Assembly: GCA_042571085.1 (NCBI GenBank)
Contig: JBHPGB010000003.1
Location: forward strand, 6,261 to 70,260
From: Patescibacteria group bacterium
GTDB lineage: Bacteria; Patescibacteriota; Minisyncoccia; Phycocordibacterales; JBHPGB01
Length of the DNA stretch: 64,000 nucleotides
Direction of reading: 5' to 3'
Under the pieces are notes generated by a model. It searched no databases. It saw only the letters and a list, made by a program, of their open reading frames with translations, and had not been told where the DNA came from. Positions 3,473-62,405 of the stretch are shown here, piece after piece (the stretch's first letter is position 1; the number at the start of each line of letters is the position of its first letter). The position numbers were made by a program, and so were the translations under genes.

Positions 3473-3510
3473 ACCGGTGCAGCTCACTTAGTGAGCTGCA
3501 CCGGTTTTAT
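3473..3510. terminator. Bidirectional intrinsic terminator (ACCGGTGCAGCTCAC ttag GTGAGCTGCACCGGT + T-run) shared by lysS and the convergent small ORF
   Basis: 15-bp perfect stem followed by TTTTAT. Confidence 0.8.
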
Positions 3511-3512
3511 AC

Positions 3513-3743
3513 TTAATCAATCATATTTGGTGAATACTTATCATTGGCACACACATCTTCAGTATGATGTTGTGTGTTTGGGATTTCTATTCCGCCACCA
3601 TTAAAAAAAATTGGATTCGTTGGAATAGGCGGCGGTGTATTTGTAGGCGCTGAGGTTCGCCCAACCGTTTGTGTTGGGTCAATTAGTTTTCCACTAAAAG
3701 AATCAGCACAATTACCATTAGTATCAATTTGCACAATGGTCAT
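3513..3743 (-). CDS. Hypothetical small Pro-rich protein (76 aa)
   Basis: ORF has a GGGAG 9 nt upstream of the ATG and ends at the shared terminator. No recognisable domain. Sits in an unusually long 470-bp gap. Confidence 0.3.
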   Translation of the reverse strand: MTIVQIDTNGNCADSFSGKLIDPTQTVGRTSAPTNTPPPIPTNPIFFNGGGIEIPNTQHHTEDVCANDKYSPNMID

Positions 3744-3883
3744 AAGTTTTACTCCCAGTTGTTTTAAAATGATGTTCCGATTAGTCTTTCTAAATTTTAG
3801 ATTAACATCCTATCGCTAATTTGTCAATTTTAATCGGCCCAATACCTATTGAGTTGTTTTTTCCGTTAAAAATAAAGATGGAG

Positions 3884-3960
3884 GTGTGTGGATAAGTGTT
3901 TTGGTGAAGTGGGATGAAGTGGTGTATAATATGTAGCAAGTGGGGTAGAGTGGGATAAGG
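3884..3960 (+). promoter_or_regulatory. dcw-cluster promoter (TTGGTG-18-TATAAT) flanked by GTGG(G) direct repeats phased every 10-11 bp. Candidate MraZ operator
   Basis: GTGG repeats at about 3888, 3909, 3919, 3940 and 3950. TATAAT at 3925..3930. Immediately upstream of mraZ. Confidence 0.5.
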
Positions 3961-3982
3961 ATTTTGTTTACCCAAGCCCGGC

Positions 3983-4435
3983 TTGATAAACAAAATTCTT
4001 ATGCTCATAGGTGAATACATACATACACTAGATCCTAAAAAGCGACTTTCAATGCCGTCTAAATTCCGTAAGGAAATAGGTAAGAAGGTTGTGGTTACAC
4101 GTGGTTTGGATAAGTGTTTGTTTGTATACACTATTGCAGAATGGAAGAGGGTTGCAGAAAAAATTGCAGAGATGTCCATCGGGCAGGCCGATAGCAGGGG
4201 ATTCAATAGGTTTCTTTTGTCGGGTGCGGTTGAAACGGATGTAGATGCTGGTGGTAGAATTTTAATTCCCGATTTTTTAAAAGATTTTGCAGGACTGAAA
4301 AGTAAAGTGATCGTTGCTGGTGTGCACAACAGAATTGAAATATGGGACGAAAAAGCATGGACGCAGTATAAGGGGCAGGTTGAAAAGCAGGCTGACGCAC
4401 TGGCAGAAAAGCTTGGGGAAATTGGGGCATTATAA
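3983..4435 (+). CDS. mraZ: Transcriptional regulator MraZ
   Basis: 150 aa; two MraZ/SpoVT-AbrB-like halves (DPKKRLSMPSKFR ... GGRILIPDFLKDFAG); first gene of the dcw cluster. Confidence 0.85.
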   Translation: MINKILMLIGEYIHTLDPKKRLSMPSKFRKEIGKKVVVTRGLDKCLFVYTIAEWKRVAEKIAEMSIGQADSRGFNRFLLSGAVETDVDAGGRILIPDFLKDFAGLKSKVIVAGVHNRIEIWDEKAWTQYKGQVEKQADALAEKLGEIGAL

Positions 4436-4440
4436 AGATT

Positions 4441-5331
4441 ATGCATAAATCAGTATTACTAAACGAAACGATAGAATTTCTTGATATACAGCCTAACGAT
4501 ATTGTGTTGGACGGTACGCTCGGAGGCGGTGGACATAGCAAAGAAATATGTGCTCGATTAAGTGGCGAAGGAATGCTTATAGGACTTGATCAAGACATTA
4601 AAGCGGTTGCACGAGTGGAGCATGTTTTAGAAGGCACTCAATGTAAGAGAAAGTTGGTACAGGGTAATTTCAGAAATTTAAGTGAAGTACTTGATATTTT
4701 GGAGGTTAAGCAGGTAGATAAGGTATTGTTTGATCTTGGGTTTAGTTCATTTCAAATTGAAGCGTCGGGTAGGGGTTTTTCTTTTCAAAAAAATGAGCCG
4801 CTACTGATGACATATTCTGACACAGTGGAAAAAGATCAGTTGACTGCGTATGAATTAGTAAACACGTGGGATGAAGAAAACATAGCTGATGTGATTTATG
4901 GATTTGGAGATGAACGCTACTCACGAAGAATTGCTCGCGGAATTGTTGAAGCCAGAACAGAAAAGCCAATTAAAAGCACATTTGAGTTGGTGGAGATAAT
5001 TAAAGAAGCTGTTCCTGGTCGCTATAGAAATGGAAAAATACATCCTGCGACTAAAACATTCCAAGCTATACGAATTGCAGTGAACGATGAATTCGGAGCT
5101 TTGGAACAGGGTATCGAAAGCGCAATTGAGCGACTTGCTCAAGGAGGAAGACTTGCGATTATTACATTCCACAGCACAGAAGACAGAATCGTAAAAAGAG
5201 CATTTAGGGACAAAAAAGAAGAAGGGCTTGTAACGATACTTACAAAAAAACCAATCGCCGTCTCACGAGAGGAGATAGAAGATAATCCAAGAGCTAGAAG
5301 TGCGAAATTAAGAGTTATACAAAAAAATTAA
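4441..5331 (+). CDS. rsmH: 16S rRNA (cytosine1402-N4)-methyltransferase RsmH
   Basis: 296 aa; SAM motif DGTLGGGGHS; conserved position after mraZ. Confidence 0.9.
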   Translation: MHKSVLLNETIEFLDIQPNDIVLDGTLGGGGHSKEICARLSGEGMLIGLDQDIKAVARVEHVLEGTQCKRKLVQGNFRNLSEVLDILEVKQVDKVLFDLGFSSFQIEASGRGFSFQKNEPLLMTYSDTVEKDQLTAYELVNTWDEENIADVIYGFGDERYSRRIARGIVEARTEKPIKSTFELVEIIKEAVPGRYRNGKIHPATKTFQAIRIAVNDEFGALEQGIESAIERLAQGGRLAIITFHSTEDRIVKRAFRDKKEEGLVTILTKKPIAVSREEIEDNPRARSAKLRVIQKN

Positions 5332-10743: not shown

Positions 10744-10837
10744 AGTCCCATTAGTTTAGCACAAAGTGCAATTACCTAAAATTGACGATAGGGTATAAAG
10801 CTGGGGAAGAAAAGTGGATAAGATTTTTGCCAAAAAT

Positions 10838-10870
10838 TAATCGGCTCAACTGGGTTGAGCCGATTAATAT
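10838..10870. terminator. Perfect palindromic hairpin ATTAATCGGCTCAAC tgg GTTGAGCCGATTAAT (member of the GGCTCAAC family), downstream of cysS
   Basis: 15-bp perfect stem; a DnaA-box-like AAGTGGATAAG lies just upstream at about 10811. Confidence 0.6.
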
Positions 10871-10886
10871 GTTCAAGAATATGAGT

Positions 10887-24483: not shown

Positions 24484-25611
24484 CTACTTCTCGTGTTTTA
24501 GTGCGAGGTTAAGGATTTCGCGGGCTATTTTTTCTCCGGCATCTGGGCGGGCAAATTCTTTTGCAGCTTGCTTCATTTCTTCTCTTGTATTTTCGTCGTC
24601 CATAAGTCTATCAATTGATGACATGAGCACATGTGGACTAAGATTTTTTTCTTCCACAACTAAACACGCTCCGCTTCTGGCATAAGTAAATGCGTTGCTG
24701 CGTTGATCGTGACTTATCTCCTCTGGGATTGGAATAATAATACTTGGTAAGCCCCAAGTAGCGATTTCAAATATAGAGGATCCGGCACGCGATATTACAA
24801 CATCAGAAATACCAGCAGACATCTTCATTGCAAGGTCGTTTAGATATTCAAAAGGTTTGTATCTATTTTTGTTTGGTGAGTCTTGCAGTATCACTGAAGC
24901 TGTACCAGAAATTTCTTTAAAGTGTTCTTTTCCTGTTTGGTGTATAACTTGATATTTTTTTACTAGCTCAGGCAATACGCCAAGTATTGCCTCATTTATT
25001 CTTTGTGCACCTTGTGATCCGCCGAGTATTAAGATAACAGGAGTTTGTTTTTCTAATTTCAAAAACTCATGAGCACCACTTGTTTGTGGGATTGAAATAT
25101 TTTTACGTATTGGATTTCCTGTGAGCGCGACACGATCTTCTGGGAAATATTGTGCTGCATCCGGATATGAAACCGCAATTCGTTTTGCAAACTTCCCTGC
25201 CCACTTATTTACTTTTCCGGGCTTTGAATCAGATTCATGTATGATTACTGGAATTCCTAAAAAGCGAGCAGCGAAAAGTGTCGGAAAGCTACCGTAACCC
25301 CCTTTGCCGAATACTACGTCAGGGAAGATTCTATACAATTGCCACGTTGCTTTAATGATTCCTGTTGCTGTTTTAAAAATATCAAAGAAGTTTTTGATTG
25401 AGAAATGTTTACGAACTTTACCAGCTGGAGCTTGTTTGAATTCTATACCGTGCTCAAAAAGCTCTTTTTTATCATATGGATTAGGTGCAACAAAATACAT
25501 TTGTGTTTCCAACAAATGTTCTTTTGATGCCAGTTCATTTATTTCTTCAGCTATTGCGATAATTGGATAAAAGTGTCCACCTGTACCGCCACCTGTAAAT
25601 AGAATTTTCAT
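24484..25611 (-). CDS. murG: UDP-GlcNAc:undecaprenyl-PP-MurNAc-pentapeptide GlcNAc transferase MurG
   Basis: 375 aa; GGTGGH N-terminal motif; GT-B fold; follows ftsW. Confidence 0.9.
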   Translation of the reverse strand: MKILFTGGGTGGHFYPIIAIAEEINELASKEHLLETQMYFVAPNPYDKKELFEHGIEFKQAPAGKVRKHFSIKNFFDIFKTATGIIKATWQLYRIFPDVVFGKGGYGSFPTLFAARFLGIPVIIHESDSKPGKVNKWAGKFAKRIAVSYPDAAQYFPEDRVALTGNPIRKNISIPQTSGAHEFLKLEKQTPVILILGGSQGAQRINEAILGVLPELVKKYQVIHQTGKEHFKEISGTASVILQDSPNKNRYKPFEYLNDLAMKMSAGISDVVISRAGSSIFEIATWGLPSIIIPIPEEISHDQRSNAFTYARSGACLVVEEKNLSPHVLMSSIDRLMDDENTREEMKQAAKEFARPDAGEKIAREILNLALKHEK

Positions 25612-25726
25612 CCCGTTAGAGATAGGAAAGATAATTTCCGTATCTGATTATGTGTTGTTAAAAAATTGACCAAAATCTCGCCATGTTCCATTTTGCCACA
25701 AAAGACAGCTTGGATCTCTAACGGGA
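25611..25726 (-). mobile_element. TIR element copy A (116 bp): 13-bp terminal inverted repeats TCCCGTTAGAGAT; TGAA/TTCA 4-bp direct repeats at 25607..25610 and 25727..25730; abuts the murG start codon
   Basis: Both ends read directly from the sequence. The terminal A of the element plus the duplicated TGAA rebuilds the murG ATG. Confidence 0.55.
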
Positions 25727-25734
25727 TTCATAAA

Positions 25735-28938: not shown

Positions 28939-29490
28939 TTAAGCCACTTCCTCTTCTTCCTCTTTTTGTTCTTCAAAACTCTCTATTTCCACTTTCACAT
29001 TTTCATAATCTGGCAGCTCTGTAATATCTGTTATACCAAGATGAGCGAAAAGTTCAAATGTTGGTTTGTATAGAAAGCTTCTTTGGTCTTCAGGGTTGCT
29101 CGTGCGTTCAACAAGTCCGCGCACCATCAAGTTGCGTAGAATGAAGCCTGAGTTTACACCACGAATGTAGTCTACCCTACTTTTTGCAATTGGTCCGAGA
29201 TATAAAACTATAGCAAGTGTTTCCAGACCTGCTTTACCCAAGTCTTTGTTCAGCTCTTCTTTTACGAGCGCTTCAATAATGTCTCCAAATTCAGGAGCAG
29301 TACCAATCATAACCACATCGTCTTTTTTAATTAATCTTATTCCCCTGTCGCTTAGGCTTTCTTTCAATTCAGAAACAGCATTAAGAGCATCTTCTTCTTG
29401 CACGCTCAACATAGCAGCCAAATTTTTTATTTTTGTTGGCCCGTTTTGGTAAAAAAGTATTGCTTCTATTTTTTTTGATAATTCATTCAT
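28939..29490 (-). CDS. scpB: Segregation and condensation protein B
   Basis: 183 aa; two winged-helix repeats; adjacent to scpA. Confidence 0.85.
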   Translation of the reverse strand: MNELSKKIEAILFYQNGPTKIKNLAAMLSVQEEDALNAVSELKESLSDRGIRLIKKDDVVMIGTAPEFGDIIEALVKEELNKDLGKAGLETLAIVLYLGPIAKSRVDYIRGVNSGFILRNLMVRGLVERTSNPEDQRSFLYKPTFELFAHLGITDITELPDYENVKVEIESFEEQKEEEEEVA

Positions 29491-29659
29491 CCCGTTAGAG
29501 ATAGGAAATAAAATTTCCGTATCTGATTATGTATTGTTAAACATTGATCAAAATCTCATTATATTCCATTTTGCCATAAAAGACAGTTTGGACCTGCCCG
29601 CCACTGCCTAATTCGTCCCAAATGTCAGTCAGGCGATGGCAGGCGGGTATCTAACGGGA
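29490..29659 (-). mobile_element. TIR element copy B (170 bp) carrying a nested 57-nt GC-clamped hairpin module; TTCA direct repeats; abuts the scpB start codon
   Basis: Same ends as copy A; insertion CCTGCCCGCCACTGCC...GGCAGGCGGGTA at about 29596..29652. Confidence 0.55.
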
Positions 29660-29672
29660 TTCATGTTGTTTT

Positions 29673-31455: not shown

Positions 31456-32608
31456 TTATCAGTGTAACAAATAATGTTGCCACTGCAGCAAATATGAAAA
31501 TAAATTTTATGCTAAAGAAAAATGAAATTATAAATGCAATACCAATCATTAATATCCTCCCAATATTTAGTGACATTTCTCGTAATACAGTATATTCGTC
31601 CACATAATGTCCATTATCTGCAGCTTGGTCATATTGTGTTGTATCAACAGATGTGCGATGTATTACTCTACCTACATTGTGGTATGTGTCTGCGATAAAA
31701 ACCTGGAATGCTGTTTCTATGAAAAGTTTAACAATCCATCCTGTGGTGTTAAATATTGATCCAATAACTACCATACGTTTTTGATTCCAGGTATCAAGTA
31801 AATTTCCAATGAAAGTTCGTATTATTATAATTGCAAAAATTGTTAATGAGGATACGATACCTACTGTGAGATATTTTTCATCAAATAGCATGAATATAAA
31901 AATAGGCCATATTATTGCTGATACAATACTTTGAAACCCATCAGCAGTGAATGCTATAAACATACCCCTGTTTTCTTTGTGAAAAAGTTTTTTGAAAGTT
32001 TCCAAGTACCCCCAACTATAATGTTCTCGTGTACTTTCTATAAAAAAAGCTGGAATTATACTGAATAAAAACAAAAAGGCTGAAACAAGGAAAGCTCCAC
32101 TGAAAGTGAAATATGCAATCAGTGCGCCACCGACAAATGGCATTATTGTACCTATTATTTGAGCAATATTACGAAGAAGAGAGATTTGTCGACCACGAAT
32201 GTCTTCGTCGGTAAATTTTGCAAAGTCTACATGATATGGAAGCCAGTATAATAATTTATATATAATAATTGCTAATGTGAATATGACAAGAATAAGATAA
32301 GGGTTATAATCCCAAAAATATAGAGAAAAAATTGATATTAGAGCGAAAGGTACCGCAATTATCATCATTTTTTTTAGGCTAAAGCTGTTTAATATTCTTG
32401 ATGCAATTGGATATAAAAAAAGGACCAAACCAAAATTTATTGCATAGATGATGAGAACTGCTGTGAAAGAATTATCAAATTTTGTAAAAAAGAATATTGG
32501 TAGGAACAATCCAATTACTCCAAACGCAGCCTGTAGTAAAACGCGCCCAGTGTATAGCCAGGCAAGATTTTTTGATATTTTTAAATTTTTGTAATCAAAC
32601 AATTTCAT
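31430..32608 (-). CDS. Polytopic membrane transporter (MFS-like), hypothetical
   Basis: 392 aa; about 12 TM helices. Confidence 0.45.
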   Translation of the reverse strand: MKLFDYKNLKISKNLAWLYTGRVLLQAAFGVIGLFLPIFFFTKFDNSFTAVLIIYAINFGLVLFLYPIASRILNSFSLKKMMIIAVPFALISIFSLYFWDYNPYLILVIFTLAIIIYKLLYWLPYHVDFAKFTDEDIRGRQISLLRNIAQIIGTIMPFVGGALIAYFTFSGAFLVSAFLFLFSIIPAFFIESTREHYSWGYLETFKKLFHKENRGMFIAFTADGFQSIVSAIIWPIFIFMLFDEKYLTVGIVSSLTIFAIIIIRTFIGNLLDTWNQKRMVVIGSIFNTTGWIVKLFIETAFQVFIADTYHNVGRVIHRTSVDTTQYDQAADNGHYVDEYTVLREMSLNIGRILMIGIAFIISFFFSIKFIFIFAAVATLFVTLINEQHDMAH

Positions 32609-32778
32609 CCCGTTAGAGATAGGAAATGTAATTTCCGTATCTTATTAATGGTAAATTGATTATGTATAAATATTTTATCAGTTTCCCGCTTGCCACAAAA
32701 GACAGTTTGGACCTGCCCGCCACTGCCTAATTCGTCCCAAATGTCAGTCAGGCGATGGCAGGCGGGTATCTAACGGGA
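32608..32778 (-). mobile_element. TIR element copy C (171 bp) with the same nested hairpin module as copy B; TTCA direct repeats; abuts the start codon of the transporter gene
   Basis: Nested module 32716..32772 is 100% identical to that in copy B. Confidence 0.55.
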
Positions 32779-32785
32779 TTCATTT

Positions 32786-34741: not shown

Positions 34742-35040
34742 ATATAGACGTGAAAAATGCCAGAGCAAGCTCCGACATTCTTCAGTGTAGTCACCTCCCG
34801 GAGGAGATAACTACCCTTTTATTATATTCAATATTGAAATCTGGTCAATACTTTTTGTAGATAATTGTGGATAACTCCCAGTGCCTATTCTTTGTAATCT
34901 GACTATTCCACCAGACGTGAAAAATGCCAGAGCAAGCTCCGACATTCTTCAGTGTAATTATTTTCCCGGAGGAAAACAATTACTCTCCTAATATATCAAT
35001 TTCTGAGATTCGCGCAAGTCCTATTTTCAATAGAGTATAA
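34742..35040 (+). repeat. Family-2 composite repeat, locus 1 (unit1 plus unit2; each unit begins with the invariant 42 nt AGACGTGAAAAATGCCAGAGCAAGCTCCGACATTCTTCAGTG)
   Basis: About 90% identical to 37322..37652; unit2 is also present alone at 39198..39372. Confidence 0.7.
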
Positions 35041-35046
35041 ATATTG

Positions 35047-36717
35047 TTATTTGTCAAATTCAGGTAAAAATAGCCTTGCGATGCGTAACTCTTCAAATGA
35101 GTATTTTTCTTTGAGTGCTTTGTATACTGGTGAGAGTTTTGTGTCTCCAGATTTTAGAAAAGCCTTGTGCATTTCCATGAGCGCTTTTTGTTTTGGTTTA
35201 AATGTACTTAAATCAAGCTTTGGATCTTTCTCTTTTAGTTTTTCAAGATGCCCAAGGATGGTGTTTTCAACCACCCCTCTCTTCTTTGCTAGTTGTTTTA
35301 AATTTAATCCCTTTTCTATCAGAAGTCTTGTCTTTTCATATGTAGAGATTTTCTCTTCAACCTTGTCTACTTTTTTATTCTTATTTTTCTCGATTTCTTT
35401 TTTATTTATAGTACCCCCACATTTAAGCACAAAATCGTTGTGCATTTTTTCCATATCTCCATCAGAAAAACGACCTATTACCTTACTCCACTTTTCAGAT
35501 TCTTTTAGAAGGTGTTCATTGATTTGAGCCACTCTTGGGTGCACTGCGAAAGCCATTTCGTTTATACCAGAAAGAAGAAGACCTCCGAGCGTGCGTAGAC
35601 GCGAGAGAGCCACGTATCCTTGTCCTGGCACGAAAGATTTAGACAAATCAATTTCTGCTGCATCCATACTCAAGCCCTGGCTTTTGTGTATCGTAATTGC
35701 CCACGCAAGCCGCAGTGGCAATTGCTCCACCATGCCTAGCACTTTCCCATCCTCCTCAACAGACCATTCCGAAGGTGAAACATGAATTAGTTCACCGGAA
35801 AAAGTTTTGACTACTGGCATGCCATCTTCAAAACCTTTTACAACACCAAGCGTGCCGTTAACGTATCCTTCCTCAAAATTGTTTTTTATAAACATCACCA
35901 CCGCGTCCTTCTTTAGTTTGAGTGTTTCGGATGTCAAAATACTCTTTTTGAGTGAGCTTATGATAGTGGCCCGCCCTTTTGAAGACATCTCAAATTTATA
36001 CTCTGTGCCTGGTAGCTTATCCAATTCTTTTTGATTTAGCTCGTCTACATCGGCATTGTGAGTATACAGGCGCGTCGGTGTGATGTTTCCTTTTATGCTC
36101 GTCTGCTCAGAAAGAATATTACGCGTTTTGTCGCTCACAGAGCCGCCTCGTATTTCATTCAGGATACTTTCTAAAGTACTGTCACCTTGGCGAAATTGTT
36201 CCTCTAAATAACAGACACGAACATCCATTTCTCTCCACGCCTCTGATGCGATAGCGAATTCTGGCTCAGTGTATCCGCGTACAATTGGCGGCAATTGAAA
36301 GAAGTCACCCGAAAGCACCACCTGCATCCCTCCAAACGGCTCAGGGTTACGTTTCATCGCTTTACACACCCTGTTTACATTATCTAGCAGCTGCGGTGAA
36401 AGCATGGAAACCTCGTCTATTAAAAGTATCTGTGTTTTTTCAAACCTGGTCCACAGGTGCTTCTTTCCCTCCATTGAATCCAAATCCATTTCAGATATGT
36501 GTTCTTTAATACCAATGCCACTCCATGAGTGAATGGTGGTGCCTCCTATATGAGTCGCCGCGATACCCGTTGAGGCTGTCACACCGATACTGACTCCCCT
36601 ATCTTTTAAATATGAAATATACTCATTTAAAACATGAGTTTTACCACTACCGGCGGCCCCTGTCAGATATACGTTTCTACCAGCCTTTAAAATTTTTAAC
36701 GCTTCGGCTTGTTTCAT
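35047..36717 (-). CDS. SF1B DNA helicase (PIF1/RecD-like) with C-terminal HTH-like tail
   Basis: 556 aa; Walker A GAAGSGKTH, Walker B LLIDEVSM, GDFFQLPPI, ITIHKSQGLS. Confidence 0.7.
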   Translation of the reverse strand: MKQAEALKILKAGRNVYLTGAAGSGKTHVLNEYISYLKDRGVSIGVTASTGIAATHIGGTTIHSWSGIGIKEHISEMDLDSMEGKKHLWTRFEKTQILLIDEVSMLSPQLLDNVNRVCKAMKRNPEPFGGMQVVLSGDFFQLPPIVRGYTEPEFAIASEAWREMDVRVCYLEEQFRQGDSTLESILNEIRGGSVSDKTRNILSEQTSIKGNITPTRLYTHNADVDELNQKELDKLPGTEYKFEMSSKGRATIISSLKKSILTSETLKLKKDAVVMFIKNNFEEGYVNGTLGVVKGFEDGMPVVKTFSGELIHVSPSEWSVEEDGKVLGMVEQLPLRLAWAITIHKSQGLSMDAAEIDLSKSFVPGQGYVALSRLRTLGGLLLSGINEMAFAVHPRVAQINEHLLKESEKWSKVIGRFSDGDMEKMHNDFVLKCGGTINKKEIEKNKNKKVDKVEEKISTYEKTRLLIEKGLNLKQLAKKRGVVENTILGHLEKLKEKDPKLDLSTFKPKQKALMEMHKAFLKSGDTKLSPVYKALKEKYSFEELRIARLFLPEFDK

Positions 36718-37321: not shown

Positions 37322-37652
37322 CTATAGACGTGAAAAATGCCAGAGCAAGCTCCGACATTCTTCAGTGCAGCTACCTCCCGGAGGAGATAACTACCTTTCT
37401 ATTATATTTAATATTGAAATCTGGTCAATACTTTTCTGTGCATAACTGTGGATAACTACCAATGCCTATTCTTTGTACCCTGACTATTTCACCAGACGTG
37501 AAAAATGCCAGAGCAAGCTCCGACATTCTTCAGTGTAATTATTTTCCCGGAGGAAAACAATTACTCTCCTAATATATCAATTTCTGAGATTCACGCAAGT
37601 CCTATTTTCAATAGAATATAAATATAAAAATATGTCAAATTTAGACAAAATG
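37322..37652 (+). repeat. Family-2 composite repeat, locus 2 (unit1 plus unit2) between engB and pyk
   Basis: Direct copy of locus 1. Confidence 0.7.
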
Positions 37653-39092: not shown

Positions 39093-39197
39093 AAACTATT
39101 ATTTGTTTGATTAATATAAAAAAATAAAAAGGCGCCATTGGCGTCATTTTTACTCCCCACTTGTTATTTGACTAACCTGGTGTTCATGTGCAAATCC

Positions 39198-39372
39198 GGG
39201 CGTGAAAAATGCCAGAGCAAGCTCCGACATTCTTCAGTGTAATCATTTAATTATTTCCCGGAGGAAACAGTTAAACAATTACTCCCCTAATATATCAATT
39301 TCTGAGATTTGCGCAAGCCCTATTTTCAATTGAGTATAAATATCAAAATATGTCAAATTGAGGTAAGTTTAG
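39198..39372 (+). repeat. Family-2 repeat, locus 3 (unit2 type only)
   Basis: Invariant 42-nt head plus a conserved tail TATATCAATTTCTGAGATT..GCGCAAG.CCTATTTTCAAT.GAGTATAAATAT. Confidence 0.65.
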
Positions 39373-42878: not shown

Positions 42879-42904
42879 CCCCTCCACAGTCATTTTAAGT
42901 CACA

Positions 42905-42938
42905 TTAATTGGCTCAACTGTGCTGAGCCAATTAATAT
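42905..42938. repeat. GGCTCA-family palindromic hairpin ATTAATTGGCTCA actgtgc TGAGCCAATTAAT
   Basis: 13-bp perfect stem; shares the ATTAAT flanks with 10838..10870. Confidence 0.55.
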
Positions 42939-42965
42939 GGCTTAAAATATAGATATTTTTGAATT

Positions 42966-55182: not shown

Positions 55183-57564
55183 CTAATTTGTGACGATACT
55201 CACTAGTTTGTTCGGTACACATATCACCTTTTTCACATCCTTTTCTTCGGTCCATTTTTTGACAGATTCAAGCTCTTGTGCCTCTTTTTTAACCATTTCC
55301 TCATTGCTATCTGCCTCGATTTCAAAGGTTCCTCGTATTTTTCCGTTCACTTGTACAGCGATCGTGACTGTCTTATCCATAGTCTTACTTTCATCGTATT
55401 CAGGCCATTCTTCAAGATGGATTGATGTGCTGTTTCCTAATTCCGCCCATAATTCTTCTGTTATGTGTGGTGCGAATGGAGCAAGTAATTTTAGAAAGTT
55501 TTTATATTGTGTTTGATTAATTTCTTGACGCTCAGCTTGATTCACAAAAATCATCATTTGTGCAATTGCTGTATTGAATTTCATTTGCTCAAGATCCTCA
55601 CCAACTTTTTTAATAGTTTGATTTAAAACAGTTTCAGCATTTGCCTCATCGGCATGTTCTGATGTCTTATCCTTCAGCTTCCACACACGTTCCAAAAATC
55701 GATATGTCCCAACAATGTTATCTTCTTTCCACATAACGTCTTCTTCAAGCGGGCCTGCAAACATCATATACATACGCACTGCGTCAGCACCAAATTTTTC
55801 TACCATTGTCTCTGGATTCACAACATTACCTTTAGACTTACTCATTTTCTTTCCTTTCTCATCTAGGACCATTCCTTGGTGTCTTAGTTTCAAAAACGGT
55901 TCGTCAAAATTAAGTACCCCGATTTTATTAAGTGCTTTAGTAATAAATCGTGCATACAAAAGATGCATATATGTATGCTCCGCCCCACCGATATATGTAT
56001 CCACAGGTAGCCAGTGTTTGAGCCTCTCTTTTCCACAAAATTCTTTTTCATTGTGCGGATCAGGATATCTCAAATAATACCAAGATGAACATACAAATGT
56101 ATCTAGAGTATCAACCTCTGGTGTCCACCCTTCACCAAATATTTTTTCAGTGCGATCAAAAAGCTCTTTTGATTTTGCCAGTGGTGCTGTACCTGTTGGC
56201 ACAAAATCAACATCCTCTGGCAAAAGCCACGGCAGATTTTCTTCACCGACAAATTTTGCCTCACCTTCTGGAGAATACACAATCGGAATCGGCGCTCCCC
56301 AATATCTTTGACGTGAAATAGACCAGTCACGAAGGCGGTATGTATTTGTTAATTCCCCGCCTACAAATTCGGTGATTTCTTTTTTGGCTTCAACAACACT
56401 CTTTCCGTCAAATTTGCCAGAATTAATTAGTTCCCCGTCACCAACGTACGCTTCTTTTGATATATCCCCGCCAGAAATAACCTCCGTAATTGGTAAATCA
56501 AACTTCTTTGCAAACTCAAAATCACGTTCATCGTGTGCTGGCACGGCCATAATTGCCCCTGTTCCGTATCCAGCAAGCACGTAATCAGCAATAAAAATTG
56601 GTATTTCTTCTTGATTAGCAGGATTTATTGCTTTCACACCTTTTAATTCAACTCCAGTTTTTTCTTTTCCTTCCATTCTTTCTAGTTCAGTCTTTTTCTG
56701 TACACCTTCAAGATATTTTTCAACCTCACCCCAGTTTTCAATAGTTTCTTTGAGCCCTTGTACTAATTCATGTTCAGGCGCAAGCACACAGTAAGTACAG
56801 CCAAACAAAGTATCTGGTCTTGTAGTAAACACTTCCATTTCTTTGTCAGTATTTGAAACTTTGAATTTTAATTTTGCTCCCTCCGATTTTCCTATCCAGT
56901 TTTTTTGATTTACCTTTGTATGTTCTGGCCAGTCCACCTTACCCAGTCCATCGATTAAGTCATCAGCGAAATCAGTGATTTTGAAAAACCATCCGGGCAC
57001 TTCTTTCATTACCACTTCACTTTTACAGCGCTCGCACGCACCATCTTCCACCTGCTCATTAGCAAGAATTGTTTTACAGGATTCACACCAGTTTGTAAGA
57101 CTAGTTTTTTTGTATGCCAGATTGTTTTCAAAGAGTTGAGCAAATATCCACTGTGTCCATTCATAATACTCAGGGTTTGATGTCACTACCTTCTCATCGA
57201 AATCATAATTAAAGCCAAGAGACCTCATTTGTTTAATATAGTTTTCAATATTTTTTACAGTGGTTTCTTTTGGGTGTACTTTTGTTTTTATCGCATAATT
57301 TTCTGCAGGTAAACCAAAAGAGTCAAAACCTTGCGGATGGAGCACATTAAAGCCATTCATTTTTTTATAGCGGTAATAAATATCACTCGCAGCATAACTT
57401 TCTGTGTGGCCCATATGTAGTCCGTCTCCAGATGGATATGGGAACATATCAAGTAAATAATACTTTTCTTTTGAAGTGTCATCTTTATCGATTTTTGCAA
57501 CAGTATCCTTCTCCCATTCCTTCTGCCACCTTTCCTCTATTTTTTTATGATTATATTCTTTCAT
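55183..57564 (-). CDS. leuS: Leucyl-tRNA synthetase
   Basis: 793 aa; HMGH and KMSKS motifs; CP1 editing domain. Confidence 0.9.
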   Translation of the reverse strand: MKEYNHKKIEERWQKEWEKDTVAKIDKDDTSKEKYYLLDMFPYPSGDGLHMGHTESYAASDIYYRYKKMNGFNVLHPQGFDSFGLPAENYAIKTKVHPKETTVKNIENYIKQMRSLGFNYDFDEKVVTSNPEYYEWTQWIFAQLFENNLAYKKTSLTNWCESCKTILANEQVEDGACERCKSEVVMKEVPGWFFKITDFADDLIDGLGKVDWPEHTKVNQKNWIGKSEGAKLKFKVSNTDKEMEVFTTRPDTLFGCTYCVLAPEHELVQGLKETIENWGEVEKYLEGVQKKTELERMEGKEKTGVELKGVKAINPANQEEIPIFIADYVLAGYGTGAIMAVPAHDERDFEFAKKFDLPITEVISGGDISKEAYVGDGELINSGKFDGKSVVEAKKEITEFVGGELTNTYRLRDWSISRQRYWGAPIPIVYSPEGEAKFVGEENLPWLLPEDVDFVPTGTAPLAKSKELFDRTEKIFGEGWTPEVDTLDTFVCSSWYYLRYPDPHNEKEFCGKERLKHWLPVDTYIGGAEHTYMHLLYARFITKALNKIGVLNFDEPFLKLRHQGMVLDEKGKKMSKSKGNVVNPETMVEKFGADAVRMYMMFAGPLEEDVMWKEDNIVGTYRFLERVWKLKDKTSEHADEANAETVLNQTIKKVGEDLEQMKFNTAIAQMMIFVNQAERQEINQTQYKNFLKLLAPFAPHITEELWAELGNSTSIHLEEWPEYDESKTMDKTVTIAVQVNGKIRGTFEIEADSNEEMVKKEAQELESVKKWTEEKDVKKVICVPNKLVSIVTN

Positions 57565-57680
57565 CCCGTTAGAGATAGGAAATAAAATTTCCGTATCTGA
57601 CTAATTATTAATTCTTTATGTATGGATATTTTACTTAATTCCCGTAGTGTCATAAAAAACAGTCTGGATCTTTAACGGGA
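57564..57680 (-). mobile_element. TIR element copy D (117 bp); TIRs TCCCGTTAGAGAT / ATCTTTAACGGGA; TTCA direct repeats; abuts the leuS start codon
   Basis: Read directly from the sequence. Confidence 0.55.
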
Positions 57681-57705
57681 TTCATTTGTTTAAATAATAC
57701 CACGC

Positions 57706-60585: not shown

Positions 60586-60613
60586 TAAGCAACATGTTAT
60601 AATACACTCATGC

Positions 60614-60715
60614 ATCCCGTTAGAAATTTTTGTTTCTTTCTACTCCATCAAGATTTACCATTGGGTTTAACGGGTTCACTTATTAAAAAATTATAAATAT
60701 AAAATTTCTAACGGG
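60614..60715 (+). mobile_element. TIR element copy E (divergent, inverted orientation): 15-bp TIRs TCCCGTTAGAAATTT / AAATTTCTAACGGGA, with an internal TIR-like GGTTTAACGGG; abuts the start codon of the plus-strand BASS-like gene
   Basis: Flanks tgca / tgaa; the terminal A plus TG again rebuilds the ATG. Confidence 0.45.
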
Positions 60716-61648
60716 ATGAAAATTTTAAAAACAATTAGAAAATTTACTGAAAATCATTTCATTATTGTTGGCTTGGCTTTAGTACTCGGTGTTTTATATG
60801 GAAACTATTTAGCTCAATATGCATATTTGAGTACCACATTACTTGCGGCTATTTTCTTTTTGAGTTCACTTAAGATTGATTTGAAGAAAGTGAGACAGTA
60901 TTTAGGAGATAAATTAGTGCTTGCTATAGTAAACATATTCATGCTTTTTATTTTGCCTGTTGCTGTTTATTACGTAACAAATGCAATATATCCGACACTT
61001 GCAATCGCATTTCTTTTGCTTGCAGCAATGCCAGCGGGAATGACAGCACCACTTCTTGCAGAGATTAGTGGAGGTAAACAAAGCTTAGCTCTTGTGCTGA
61101 CAGTTACAACTTCACTCTTAGCACCAATTACTGCACCATTCATAATTAAAACAGTTGCCGGTGCGCAAGTTGATGTAAGTTTTTGGGCAATGTTTACCAC
61201 TTTGGCTATTGTGATTTACATTCCATTTATTTTTGCTCAGATTATCAAACGATTTTGGCAGCGTGCAATTGATAAAGTCGCGATTTCATTCAAACCAATT
61301 TCTGTAATTTTGCTCGGACTTTTAATTATGGTTGTAATTGCAAAACAATCCGACGCAATTATAGATGGATTCAAAAACGGCGATGAATCAATAATATATC
61401 TTGTCGCCCTATTTATTTTCTTTTTGATACTACATGTTCTCGGCCACATAACTTCCTTTTGGAAAAAAAGAGACGAACGCATCACGATCACCGTGTGCCT
61501 CACATATATGAACTTCACACTTGCTATAGAATTGGCCAATAAATTCTTCACAGAGCCTAATATTGTAATACCGGTCGTGTTCTCAGTGATACCGTGGGCG
61601 ATTATGCTTATTCCATATAAACGCATCATGCAAAAAAAGACCAGTTAA
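60716..61648 (+). CDS. BASS-family (bile acid:Na+ symporter-like) membrane transporter
   Basis: 310 aa; about 9-10 TM; size and topology typical of this family. Confidence 0.5.
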   Translation: MKILKTIRKFTENHFIIVGLALVLGVLYGNYLAQYAYLSTTLLAAIFFLSSLKIDLKKVRQYLGDKLVLAIVNIFMLFILPVAVYYVTNAIYPTLAIAFLLLAAMPAGMTAPLLAEISGGKQSLALVLTVTTSLLAPITAPFIIKTVAGAQVDVSFWAMFTTLAIVIYIPFIFAQIIKRFWQRAIDKVAISFKPISVILLGLLIMVVIAKQSDAIIDGFKNGDESIIYLVALFIFFLILHVLGHITSFWKKRDERITITVCLTYMNFTLAIELANKFFTEPNIVIPVVFSVIPWAIMLIPYKRIMQKKTS

Positions 61649-61741: not shown

Positions 61742-61813
61742 TCCCAAGACCGTCTTGGGAAACCCTTGTTTTTCAACGTAAAATACGGCTCAACTGGGTT
61801 GAGCCGTATTTTA
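61742..61813. terminator. Two tandem hairpins between convergent genes: CCCAAGA ccg TCTTGGG, and GGCTCAAC-family AAATACGGCTCAAC tgg GTTGAGCCGTATTT
   Basis: Read directly from the sequence. Confidence 0.6.
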
Positions 61814-61820
61814 TTTGTTT

Positions 61821-62405
61821 TTATTTCCCCTTTTTACCTAATCCGTACACCTTTTTCTTCCAATAATCTAGTCGTTCTTTTGGCAATTTCTCTACAGGGC
61901 CGAATTTGTATACATATATTGGTGATATTCCAGCAAAGCCCAAAATACTTTTTCGTAGTGCCCTACTACTATCTCCAAATAGTAATCTTGCTTGCCACGG
62001 AGTAGTATTTAAAGTAACAAAGATTGAAGCAGACCGGTCTTTCAAAAGTTTTCTCCAACCAGAACCATCTTTTTTGAATTTAAAAGCAAAGCCAGGTAAA
62101 AACATTCTTTCCCACATACCTTTAAATATTGCCGGCATACCTCCCCACCAATTTGGGTAAAAAATTGCAATGTGATTAGCCCATTTAATTAAATTTTGCA
62201 AACGCAATAGATCTGGCTCTAGTTCCTGAATAATTTTATAGCCATGATGCAAAATTGGATCAAATTGCATTTCAGAAACATTTATCCTTTTTACATTGTG
62301 TCCAGCATCCCTAGCTCCCTTTTCATATTTATCAGCAAGAGCCCCATAGTATGTGGAGCTATCGCCTTGACCGAGAATTATTAATACGTTTTTACTTTTA
62401 TTCAT
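61821..62405 (-). CDS. Flavodoxin-like fold NAD(P)H-dependent quinone/FMN reductase (KefF/KefG/MdaB-like)
   Basis: 194 aa; N-terminal VLIILGQGDSSTYYGALA flavodoxin-like motif. Confidence 0.6.
   Translation of the reverse strand: MNKSKNVLIILGQGDSSTYYGALADKYEKGARDAGHNVKRINVSEMQFDPILHHGYKIIQELEPDLLRLQNLIKWANHIAIFYPNWWGGMPAIFKGMWERMFLPGFAFKFKKDGSGWRKLLKDRSASIFVTLNTTPWQARLLFGDSSRALRKSILGFAGISPIYVYKFGPVEKLPKERLDYWKKKVYGLGKKGK

Follow-up and report, generated by a model that had tools for sequence, protein, structure and literature searches.

Small palindromic elements in bacterial genomes

The described systems closest to the element treated here are the bacterial MITEs (miniature inverted-repeat transposable elements) with hairpin potential, such as Correia/NEMIS of Neisseria, ERIC, RUP and MITEAba12, which are small and non-coding, occur in many copies, carry terminal inverted repeats (TIRs), make a short target duplication, are co-transcribed with neighbouring genes and show presence/absence polymorphism. 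These features, co-transcription presumably among them, are shared by a 104-bp palindromic element, copy E, located at 60614..60717 (plus strand) of a 64,000-nucleotide stretch from a Patescibacteria group bacterium (assembly GCA_042571085.1, contig JBHPGB010000003.1, positions 6,261 to 70,260), hereafter called the window. The family to which copy E belongs measures 31 to ~130 bp, contains nothing but variable leader-peptide open reading frames (ORFs), has 14-bp TIRs family-wide, duplicates its target, occurs five times in these 64 kb, and occupies sites that are empty elsewhere. However, the known MITEs insert at TA or at loose intergenic sites and none of them is known to rebuild an ATG, as this start-codon element does; they are also restricted to a genus or family and derive from identifiable insertion sequences (ISs), whereas the termini of the start-codon element are identical across phyla and no related autonomous IS with the same termini was found in 0.96 Mb of related DNA, in IMG/VR or among the linked genes. 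Start codons are not mentioned in a 2024 review of prokaryotic MITEs (PMC10969869). The element family is apparently undescribed: no account of such a start-codon element came up in a search of the literature that also covered the arm sequences themselves.

Other systems resemble the element in part. The Rickettsia palindromic elements (RPEs) are likewise palindromic and, in reduced genomes, reside within the transcription units of essential genes without being lethal, but they insert in-frame within ORFs and so become a translated segment of the protein (PMC10969869), whereas the start-codon element precedes the ORF and is rarely fused to it in-frame (2 of 103 copies among the matches listed). 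Repetitive extragenic palindromic (REP) sequences in REPIN-RAYT systems form hairpin doublets of ~100 nt with compensatory arm changes, reach many copies per genome and are mobilised in trans; the start-codon element, by comparison, has no GTAG-type core or recurrent adjacent RAYT-like gene, and its arms are not self-folding REP units. REPINs are, moreover, extragenic, and unlike the start-codon element they have no fixed relation to a start codon and no 2-bp duplication. Mycobacterial interspersed repetitive units (MIRUs) are also repeats at operon junctions in a leaderless-rich host, and Supply et al. in 1997 reportedly described small ORFs in them whose ends overlap with the stop and start codons on either side, so that translational coupling is maintained. 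MIRUs are, however, tandem minisatellite units without inverted termini, and only ~30% of the leader ORFs of the start-codon element reach the rebuilt ATG. Finally, translational bypass elements (T4 gene 60; mitochondrial 'byp') place an inserted hairpin between matching take-off and landing codons, which here would be AUG...AUG, but the start-codon element has no stop codon after the take-off codon, and we know of no translational bypassing at initiation.

Copy E and its empty orthologous sites

Copy E is delimited by the termini ATCCCGTTAGA...TCTAACGGGAT. A first-pass annotation of this DNA had described perfect 15-bp TIRs with the flanks TGCA (60611-14) and TGAA (60717-20); both are present in the sequence, where the inverted repeat is actually 18 nt long and 100% complementary, with the 5' arm at 60613..60630 and the 3' arm at 60701..60718 of the plus strand, separated by 70 nt. 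The arms read TCCCGTTAGAAATTT at 60615-60629 and AAATTTCTAACGGGA at 60702-60716. The last three bases of the 3' arm are the start codon of a gene encoding a 310-aa SBF/BASS-family transporter (60716..61648, plus strand; Pfam SBF/SBF_like), and this ATG, rebuilt by the element end, is composed of the terminal A of copy E plus TG, as already proposed and as read directly in the sequence. Since the repeat extends to 60718, the whole SBF ATG is base-paired in the predicted hairpin, and the predicted RNA fold of 60610-60730 has a free energy of -27.1 kcal/mol (z = -3.85). The flanking dinucleotides GC (60612-13) and GA (60718-19) form a duplication with one mismatch.

A relic start codon (60610-12) runs straight into copy E and opens a 28-codon leader ORF (MHPVRNFCFFLLHQDLPLGLTGSLIKKL; 60610..60696, plus strand), which stops with a TAA at 60694-96, 19 nt upstream of the real ATG. 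Six nucleotides upstream of the relic ATG lies an extended -10 promoter, TGtTATAAT (60595..60603, plus strand), predicted to be the leaderless promoter that served the SBF gene before the insertion. Orthologous loci agree with this assignment. The nearest relative by SBF protein is GCA_042577165.1 (98% identical), and L121, a strain with an SBF protein of 98% identity, carries an identical element E in place. In two relatives with SBF proteins of 83% identity (L123 and L124) there is no element and the promoter directly abuts the gene start, in the layout TGnTATAAT, 6-7 nt, ATG: L123 has TGCTATAAT, 7 nt and ATG (junction TGCTATAATattcccaATGATT), and L124 has TGTATAAT, 6 nt and ATG (junction TGTATAATactcacATGGCA). 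The L124 orthologue (protein P0002) is annotated with 353 aa, as the gene caller extended the gene upstream, and public annotations probably misplace the starts of genes that bear the element or are leaderless.

Since the orthologous SBF sites are empty, with the leaderless promoter directly on the ATG, copy E can be recognised as an insertion, and the same comparison was possible for other copies in the window. Copy A (118 bp; 25610..25727, minus strand) lies at the FtsW-to-MurG junction, the MurG ATG being the reverse complement of 25609-11 and the relic ATG that of 25729-31. Copy B (172 bp; 29489..29660, minus strand) lies at the ScpA-to-ScpB junction, and copy C (173 bp; 32607..32779, minus strand) at the start codon of a gene for a major facilitator superfamily (MFS) transporter. 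Genome GCA_054015055.1 (L126) is syntenic with the window over the cell-wall and Scp region. There and in L128, the FtsW-MurG junction is empty (TAAAGTTATGAAAATA; TAAAGTT-ATGAAAATA in L126) and the ScpA-ScpB junction holds neither element nor arms, while the MFS gene site is empty in L126 (TAGAGAAAATGAAT), where it reads TAGAGAAA-ATGAAT. No arms or arm pairs were detected in 21 kb of either L126 or L128. Thus, at four of the five sites in the window (E, A, B and C) an element is present here and missing from relatives, its boundary falling exactly at the ATG, and the distribution of the element among related genomes is patchy. At the level of sequence, these comparisons and the junctions described below show that integration at ATG-R-A start codons with a 2-bp (GN) duplication rebuilds the ATG: the terminal AT of the element and the duplicated G make an intact ATG flush with the gene, and the old ATG is left with its original initiation context, be it a leaderless promoter, an upstream stop codon or a Shine-Dalgarno (SD) sequence.

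Copy D (119 bp; 57563..57681, minus strand) occupies the start codon of a gene for a 793-aa class-I aminoacyl-tRNA synthetase, and its relic ATG (reverse complement of 57683-85) lies 8 nt after TGgTATTAT, an arrangement as in copy E. In gene orientation all five copies read 5'-ATG(A/C)-ATCCCGTTA(G/A)A...TCTAACGGGAT-GAA. For the motif CTAACGGG, 0.52 occurrences would be expected in the window; there are 9, a count that no shuffle attained, and the 9 perfect and 1 one-mismatch occurrences of the 11-mer TCTAACGGGAT are exactly the ten arms of the five elements, which sit on the start codons of 5 of the 58 window genes. Among the other 53 window ORFs, 25 are preceded by a TANNNT box, often of the form TGnTATAAT, that ends 5-9 nt upstream of the ATG, and only 5 have an SD-like motif; the host genome is largely leaderless.

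The interior of copy E contains a third TIR-like segment, as the first-pass annotation had pointed out. This partial copy of the 3' end (GGTTTAACGGGTT; 60664..60676, plus strand) reads GGTTTAACGGG at 60664-60674, and its TTTAACGGGTT at 60666-60676 matches 9 of the 11 positions of the 3' terminus. The proposed layout of a mini-element joined to a second right end proved to be recurrent, with an internal 3'-end copy (at least 8 of 11 positions) in 27 of 125 elements compared to 7 of 125 in the mirror control among the matches listed. The 'third TIR' of copy E is therefore the family's internal decoy copy of the 3' end, and it can putatively act as an alternative pairing partner for the 5' arm or as a second binding site. 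Short composite copies such as ATCCCGTTAGAAATTTTTCCTAACGGGAT-AAATTGGG-ATTTCTAACGGGAT exist, and L213, L241 and L152 are short composites in which this layout is plain to see. In the short metagenome composites L241, L240, L152, L238 and L228 we observed GGAGG/GAGG ~12 nt upstream of the ATG, between the internal end-copy and the terminal arm; at the equivalent place copy E has AT-rich -10-like boxes.

These boxes lie in an AT-rich spacer (60692..60705, plus strand) and had given rise to the idea of an outward promoter, with TATAAAT placed about 10 nt before the ATG. The real distance of TATAAAT (60692-98) is 17 nt, and it is TAAAAT (60700-05) that lies 10 nt upstream. A simple promoter scan had no match inside copy E, and family-wide -10-like hexamers are no commoner on the sense than on the antisense strand and show no positional peak, so that the idea fails for the family; despite this, the TAAAAT box stays a candidate promoter element in copy E alone. 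The rest of the interior is not shared, as the best alignment score of the copy E interior against the other copies equals the shuffle null. Copy E had been regarded as a divergent member, but its ends match the family consensus exactly, at 104 bp it belongs to the main size class, and it agrees with the four minus-strand copies in termini, ATG junction and polarity of the internal end-copy, as expected from the earlier grouping. Judged from these features, copy E is a genuine insertion and an ordinary member of its family.

Distribution, target and anatomy of the family

A two-ended pattern scan with one genome per species gave at least 120 loci, and the 143 elements and the 125-element set used here derive from the matches listed in that scan; unless the metagenome set or the 0.96 Mb of related DNA is named, all counts in this section refer to these listed matches. 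A one-ended metagenome scan for the 3' junction, hence unbiased, gave 120 further loci with 114 evaluable junctions. The 11-nt termini ATCCCGTTAGA...TCTAACGGGAT were found in more than 240 fetched loci, mostly of Patescibacteria from many classes, including Saccharibacteria, Paceibacteria/Parcubacteria and Kaiser-, Nomura-, Wolfe-, Levyi-, Kerfeld- and Moranbacteria. Hosts outside the Patescibacteria were Sedimentisphaerales (3 metagenome-assembled genomes, MAGs), another Planctomycete, and Omnitrophota and WOR-3 MAGs. An AGACCT/AGGTCT arm extension is common to the MAGs from outside the candidate phyla radiation (CPR), with the exceptions of WOR-3 and one Omnitrophota copy (L016), and copies with this extension are flush with ATGA...GAA starts of long ORFs in L067, L082, L087 (Omnitrophota) and L095. 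The L083 copy with the same extension opens merely a 6-codon ORF, and in L067 an SD-like GGAAG lies upstream of the relic ATG; L067, L082, L083 and L095 are Sedimentisphaerales/Planctomycetes.

In 125 of the 143 elements (~87%) exactly one end is the ATG of an ORF of at least 50 aa. The 5' flank of these 125 is A (110), T (111), G (104) and then N, and the 3' flank is G-N-A, with the A in 117. GN is the same on both sides in 91 of 97 copies, and the usual junction, ATG-N-element-G-N-A, thus contains a 2-bp duplication, the duplication being 1-3 bp long in a minority. Tandem copies share a single GA (...CGGGAT-GA-ATCCCG...). Position +5 is A in 94% of occupied sites compared to 29 of 53 (55%) unoccupied window starts, and a purine is also preferred at +4, from which we deduce the target ATG-R-A. 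The metagenome set gave a similar picture: an exact partner arm exists for 95 of the 114 junctions and a visibly diverged one for 10 or more of the remaining 19, the 5' flank is ATGA in 70 of those 95, and 100 of the 114 open an ORF.

The view of the first-pass annotation that the motif marks an inserted element rather than an expression signal depended on the arms being paired, and junctions without a TIR partner were therefore looked for. In 0.96 Mb of related DNA there are 158 arm pairs against 5 and 14 unpartnered arms. It is very hard to reconcile such almost invariable pairing with CTAACGGG-ATG being a generic transcription or translation initiation signal, a reading that we consider refuted on this ground, although the motif always adjoins an ATG and, rarely, a solo 3' arm is flush on it. 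True solos appear to amount to ~7 of the 114 metagenome junctions, judged from the 19 cases without an exact partner, the motif is on 5 of the 58 window genes only, and at no usable distance does it resemble a -10 box or an SD sequence. One such solo 3' arm (ACATTTCTAACGGGATG; L086:2041) has no 5' partner within 190 nt of the gene start and is apparently a truncated copy.

The elements are usually ~100-125 bp long within a continuum from 31 to ~130 bp, the smallest being a bare 31-nt hairpin with a 14-bp stem and a 3-nt loop. Strict conservation is confined to the 11-14-bp termini, 5'-ATCCCGTTAGA(RRY)...(RYY)TCTAACGGGAT-3'. The terminal stem has 14 bp, and positions 12-14 vary yet covary (Watson-Crick pairs in 116 of 125). 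Stem mismatches are equally often G.T and A.C (16 vs. 14, and 41 vs. 38 in a second comparison), which favours symmetry at the DNA level over selection on the sense RNA. Stacked on this stem is a second helix, G(G/A)NNNN/NNNN(C/T)C, with a single base of the 3' strand left unpaired; it forms either by long-range pairing or as a local hairpin and shows much compensatory variation, while the interiors are AT-rich and unrelated from copy to copy.

Despite their symmetric ends, the elements are polar. The subterminal hairpin is gene-proximal rather than gene-distal in 51:5 cases, interior GGGAT occurs 22 times in sense and once in antisense orientation (GGGA, 47 vs. 6), and SD-like purine motifs exceed their control in the genome set (30 vs. 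11) as well as in the metagenome set (16 vs. 4). The earlier statement that the family occurs in both chromosomal orientations, always with the same polarity relative to the gene, holds insofar as copy E is on the plus strand and the others on the minus strand, but 'always' is to be read as a strong bias (51:5) and not as a rule. In 31 of 103 copies the frame of the relic ATG is stop-free across the interior, compared to 12 and 12 for the other frames and to 11.6 +/- 3.2 open frames in shuffled interiors. These open leader ORFs end at a UAA within the 3' arm (20) or at a UGA overlapping AUGA (9). No conserved leader peptide was recognised among the leader ORFs as a whole, which run from 5 to 48 aa and in which only the arm-dictated M-(N/D/H/Y)-P-V-R is common. 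The polar features are consistent with keeping the rebuilt start codon usable.

The downstream genes span 155 Pfam families over 120 genes (including topA, frr, ssb, adk, pheT and murG) without a transposase and without a functional bias, and no protein family recurs in more than 6 of the 120 loci. In the 0.96 Mb, no gene lies between paired arms that are separated by more than 330 bp, and no match was obtained in IMG/VR that would indicate phage carriage. Searches with the Rfam 15 families returned a tRNA alone for the window, tRNAs alone for 18 element-bearing loci, and hairpin noise for the copy E region at a permissive E-value, so that the element matched no covariance model at the gathering threshold.

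A variant subfamily (L006:3941, L012:7230, L100:654, L017:1225; L190, L133, L166, L143) carries (A)C(T/C)TG-(T/C)CCCGTTAGA at its gene-distal end in place of ATGN-ATCCCG and consequently has no relic ATG; in the L006, L012 and L100 copies the gene-side arm is degenerate (TCTAATGGGATG). Other repeats were observed in the window. Copies B and C, and no others, contain a nested ~57-nt GC-rich palindrome, CCTGCCCGCCACTGCC...GGCGATGGCAGGCGGG (29592-29649 and 32711-32768), which cuts the terminal stem to 11 bp and may represent a second kind of small palindromic insert. Direct repeats of 53-218 nt (GACGTGAAAAATGCCAGAGCAAGCTCCGACATTCTTCAGTG...) in three to five intergenic copies (34743-35069, 37323-37650 and 39196-39366) bear no relation to the start-codon element. 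A perfect palindrome of 25 nt around a 3-nt loop (59872-59896/59900-59924; GGGTATACT...) overlaps the start/promoter region of the YchF GTPase gene, and a hairpin, (ATTAAT)CGGCTCAAC-NNN-GTTGAGCCG(ATTAAT), recurs between convergent genes at 10836-10882, 42904-42950 and 61780-61826, where it probably serves as a shared terminator in both directions or represents some other small repeat. Operon junctions in the window measure 2-8 nt.

Mobility, expression and arms at tRNA genes

On balance we favour the view that copy E is a mobile element of the palindromic, foldback and MITE-like kind which is non-autonomous, has ATG-R-A start codons as its target and is expressed via a hairpin leader, and we consider this probable, with real room for doubt. 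A putative recombinase or transposase supplied in trans would recognise the termini and exchange strands with a 2-bp stagger or core, and a 2-bp crossover core would also account for the inherited polarity. Once inserted, the element would be transcribed as a hairpin leader that sequesters the rebuilt AUG; ribosomes loaded on the old AUG would open the stem by translating into the 5' arm and, after termination, start anew at the rebuilt AUG, and by this route the expression of the downstream, often essential, gene could be preserved. The conserved end would supply the stop codon, either a UAA at -8 or, when N is A, a UGA overlapping AUGA. Selection may have enriched survivors for sense-strand helpers, namely the 3'-end decoy that can occupy the 5' arm and purine/SD-like motifs, both of which would favour access to the AUG, and an open leader ORF.

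Several observations weigh against this explanation. Identity of the 11-nt termini across very distant phyla is unusual for transposase-bound ends, the target (ATG-R-A) is asymmetric despite symmetric ends, and neither an autonomous copy nor a candidate transposase with the same termini was found in the 0.96 Mb or among the genes linked to the 120 matches listed. The 87% start-codon association exceeds the ~30% that we roughly estimate for sequence preference combined with purifying selection. Simple termination and re-initiation cannot be the whole story, as 70% of the leader ORFs stop early, far from the rebuilt AUG, and the model accounts for neither these ORFs nor the invariance of the termini across phyla. 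Finally, a metagenome contig carries element arms at tRNA genes in a configuration that fits excision at the RNA level better.

This contig, L186 (Ga0210049_1017225), encodes a 444-aa bacterial-type NusA and is therefore bacterial. At 3480-4020 and 4940-5160, element arms of a CCCCG/CGGGG variant bracket pieces of tRNAs. A tRNA-Gly(UCC) gene is interrupted at position 37/38 of the anticodon loop by an arm, a complete tRNA-Ala, a further arm and CAAG, and four further tRNA 5' halves each end in sequence of the 5'-arm type. In these arrays the 5' halves are followed by CA(C/T)CCCGTTAGA and the 3' halves preceded by TCTAACGGGGC-AAGT, and the conserved 'CTTG' extension of a variant subfamily matches the intron tail of L186. 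At a second locus a complete tRNA-Pro lies between arms, apparently within another tRNA that ARAGORN calls Phe(GAA), the cloverleaf of which was not confirmed by hand. Removal of the intervening stretch in silico gives well-formed tRNAs. Archaeal split tRNAs and 37/38 introns (Nanoarchaeum, Caldivirga) are alike in that the L186 halves meet at complementary arms and the interruption is at 37/38; they differ in that the host of L186 is bacterial, that no bulge-helix-bulge is evident and that the case consists of a single contig.

Mainly because of L186, we retain processing at the RNA level as an unlikely but serious alternative. The element would then be a mobile, intron-like RNA leader: the hairpin would be recognised in the transcript by a universal host activity and either cut at CGGG^AUG, for example RNase III-like and two bp above the stem base, or excised in a splicing-type reaction, yielding a leaderless mRNA from the rebuilt AUG or restoring the original junction, so that the genes hit, the L186 tRNAs among them, would be expressed, and mobility of the DNA would be its mode of spread only. 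The RNases that CPR bacteria have kept are RNase III, RNase J and PNPase (PMC12641178), in keeping with such processing. The termini identical across phyla fit recognition by a universal host factor, and the largely leaderless host, the entire AUG lying within the stem, the minimal copies that are bare 14-bp hairpins down to 31 nt, the tolerance of the insert by essential genes and the well-formed tRNAs after removal all point the same way. However, selection for an RNA stem finds no support in the balance of G.U and A.C mismatches, a bulge-helix-bulge could not be drawn by hand at the mRNA or the tRNA junctions, no Rfam 15 family matches, and the tRNA case is one contig among ~366 arm pairs. 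Efficient excision should, moreover, allow insertion at internal ATG-R-A sites, yet 87% of the listed elements are at start codons. A resident cis-regulatory RNA that evolved in place, such as a hairpin switch, thermometer or riboswitch-like leader in which the 5' arm would pair in turn with the internal copy (ON) and with the 3' arm (OFF), appears improbable to us. Alternative pairing is possible in copy E (9 bp with 60664-74), the internal copy has sense-strand polarity and the AUG is sequestered in the minimum-free-energy fold, but the empty orthologous sites largely refute an origin in place, and 2-bp duplications and tandem copies speak for insertion. The interiors are unrelated, without a conserved core resembling a ligand pocket or a match in Rfam, and since the functionally unrelated downstream genes span so many Pfam families, a gene-specific regulator can be dismissed.

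The abutted TCTAACGGGAT-GN-ATCCCGTTAGA resembles half-sites around a 2-bp crossover, as in site-specific recombination sites of the integron attC, Xer or serine-recombinase type. In attC, which lies at the 3' end of mobile cassettes with an integrase nearby, the core RYYYAAC (R'') comes before GTTRRRY (R'), and the arms contain GTTAGA/TCTAAC with 6 of 7 positions similar; the common 2-bp GN core, the single GA between tandem copies and an asymmetric core that would mechanistically keep polarity are compatible with such a site. In contrast, the two cores follow each other the opposite way round from attC (GTTAGA...TCTAAC), the genes on either side are syntenic housekeeping genes and not cassettes, and no linked integrase was seen at the 120 listed loci, for which reasons an integron attC was rejected. 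We give this possibility very little weight as an identity of its own; it is a sub-hypothesis on the enzyme of the mobile element. Elements of the PATE type derived from IS200/IS605, which have subterminal hairpins without TIRs, no duplication and a fixed 4-5-nt left-end target, were also rejected in view of the true TIRs and the 2-bp duplication found here, as were hammerhead and twister ribozymes, attC and dif, considered from their sequence features.

If the start-codon element is indeed mobile as we favour, one tiny family sits on the start codons of an appreciable part of the genes (5 of 58 in the window, including murG, scpB and a tRNA synthetase) and does so in many CPR lineages and some Planctomycetota and Omnitrophota. 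For annotation, the additional upstream ATG and leader ORF mislead gene callers, as with P0002, and for strain typing the presence or absence of copies is a marker for population genetics at the strain level. The copies that split tRNA genes hint at a link with fragmented tRNA genes, hitherto an archaeal curiosity, and should the intron-like leader prove true, the family would add a new class to the intervening sequences of bacteria and act as an inbuilt source of leaderless mRNAs. As a mobile element with a hairpin leader, it would mean that these mostly leaderless, SD-poor organisms can express essential genes even with the AUG taken up in a 14-18-bp hairpin.

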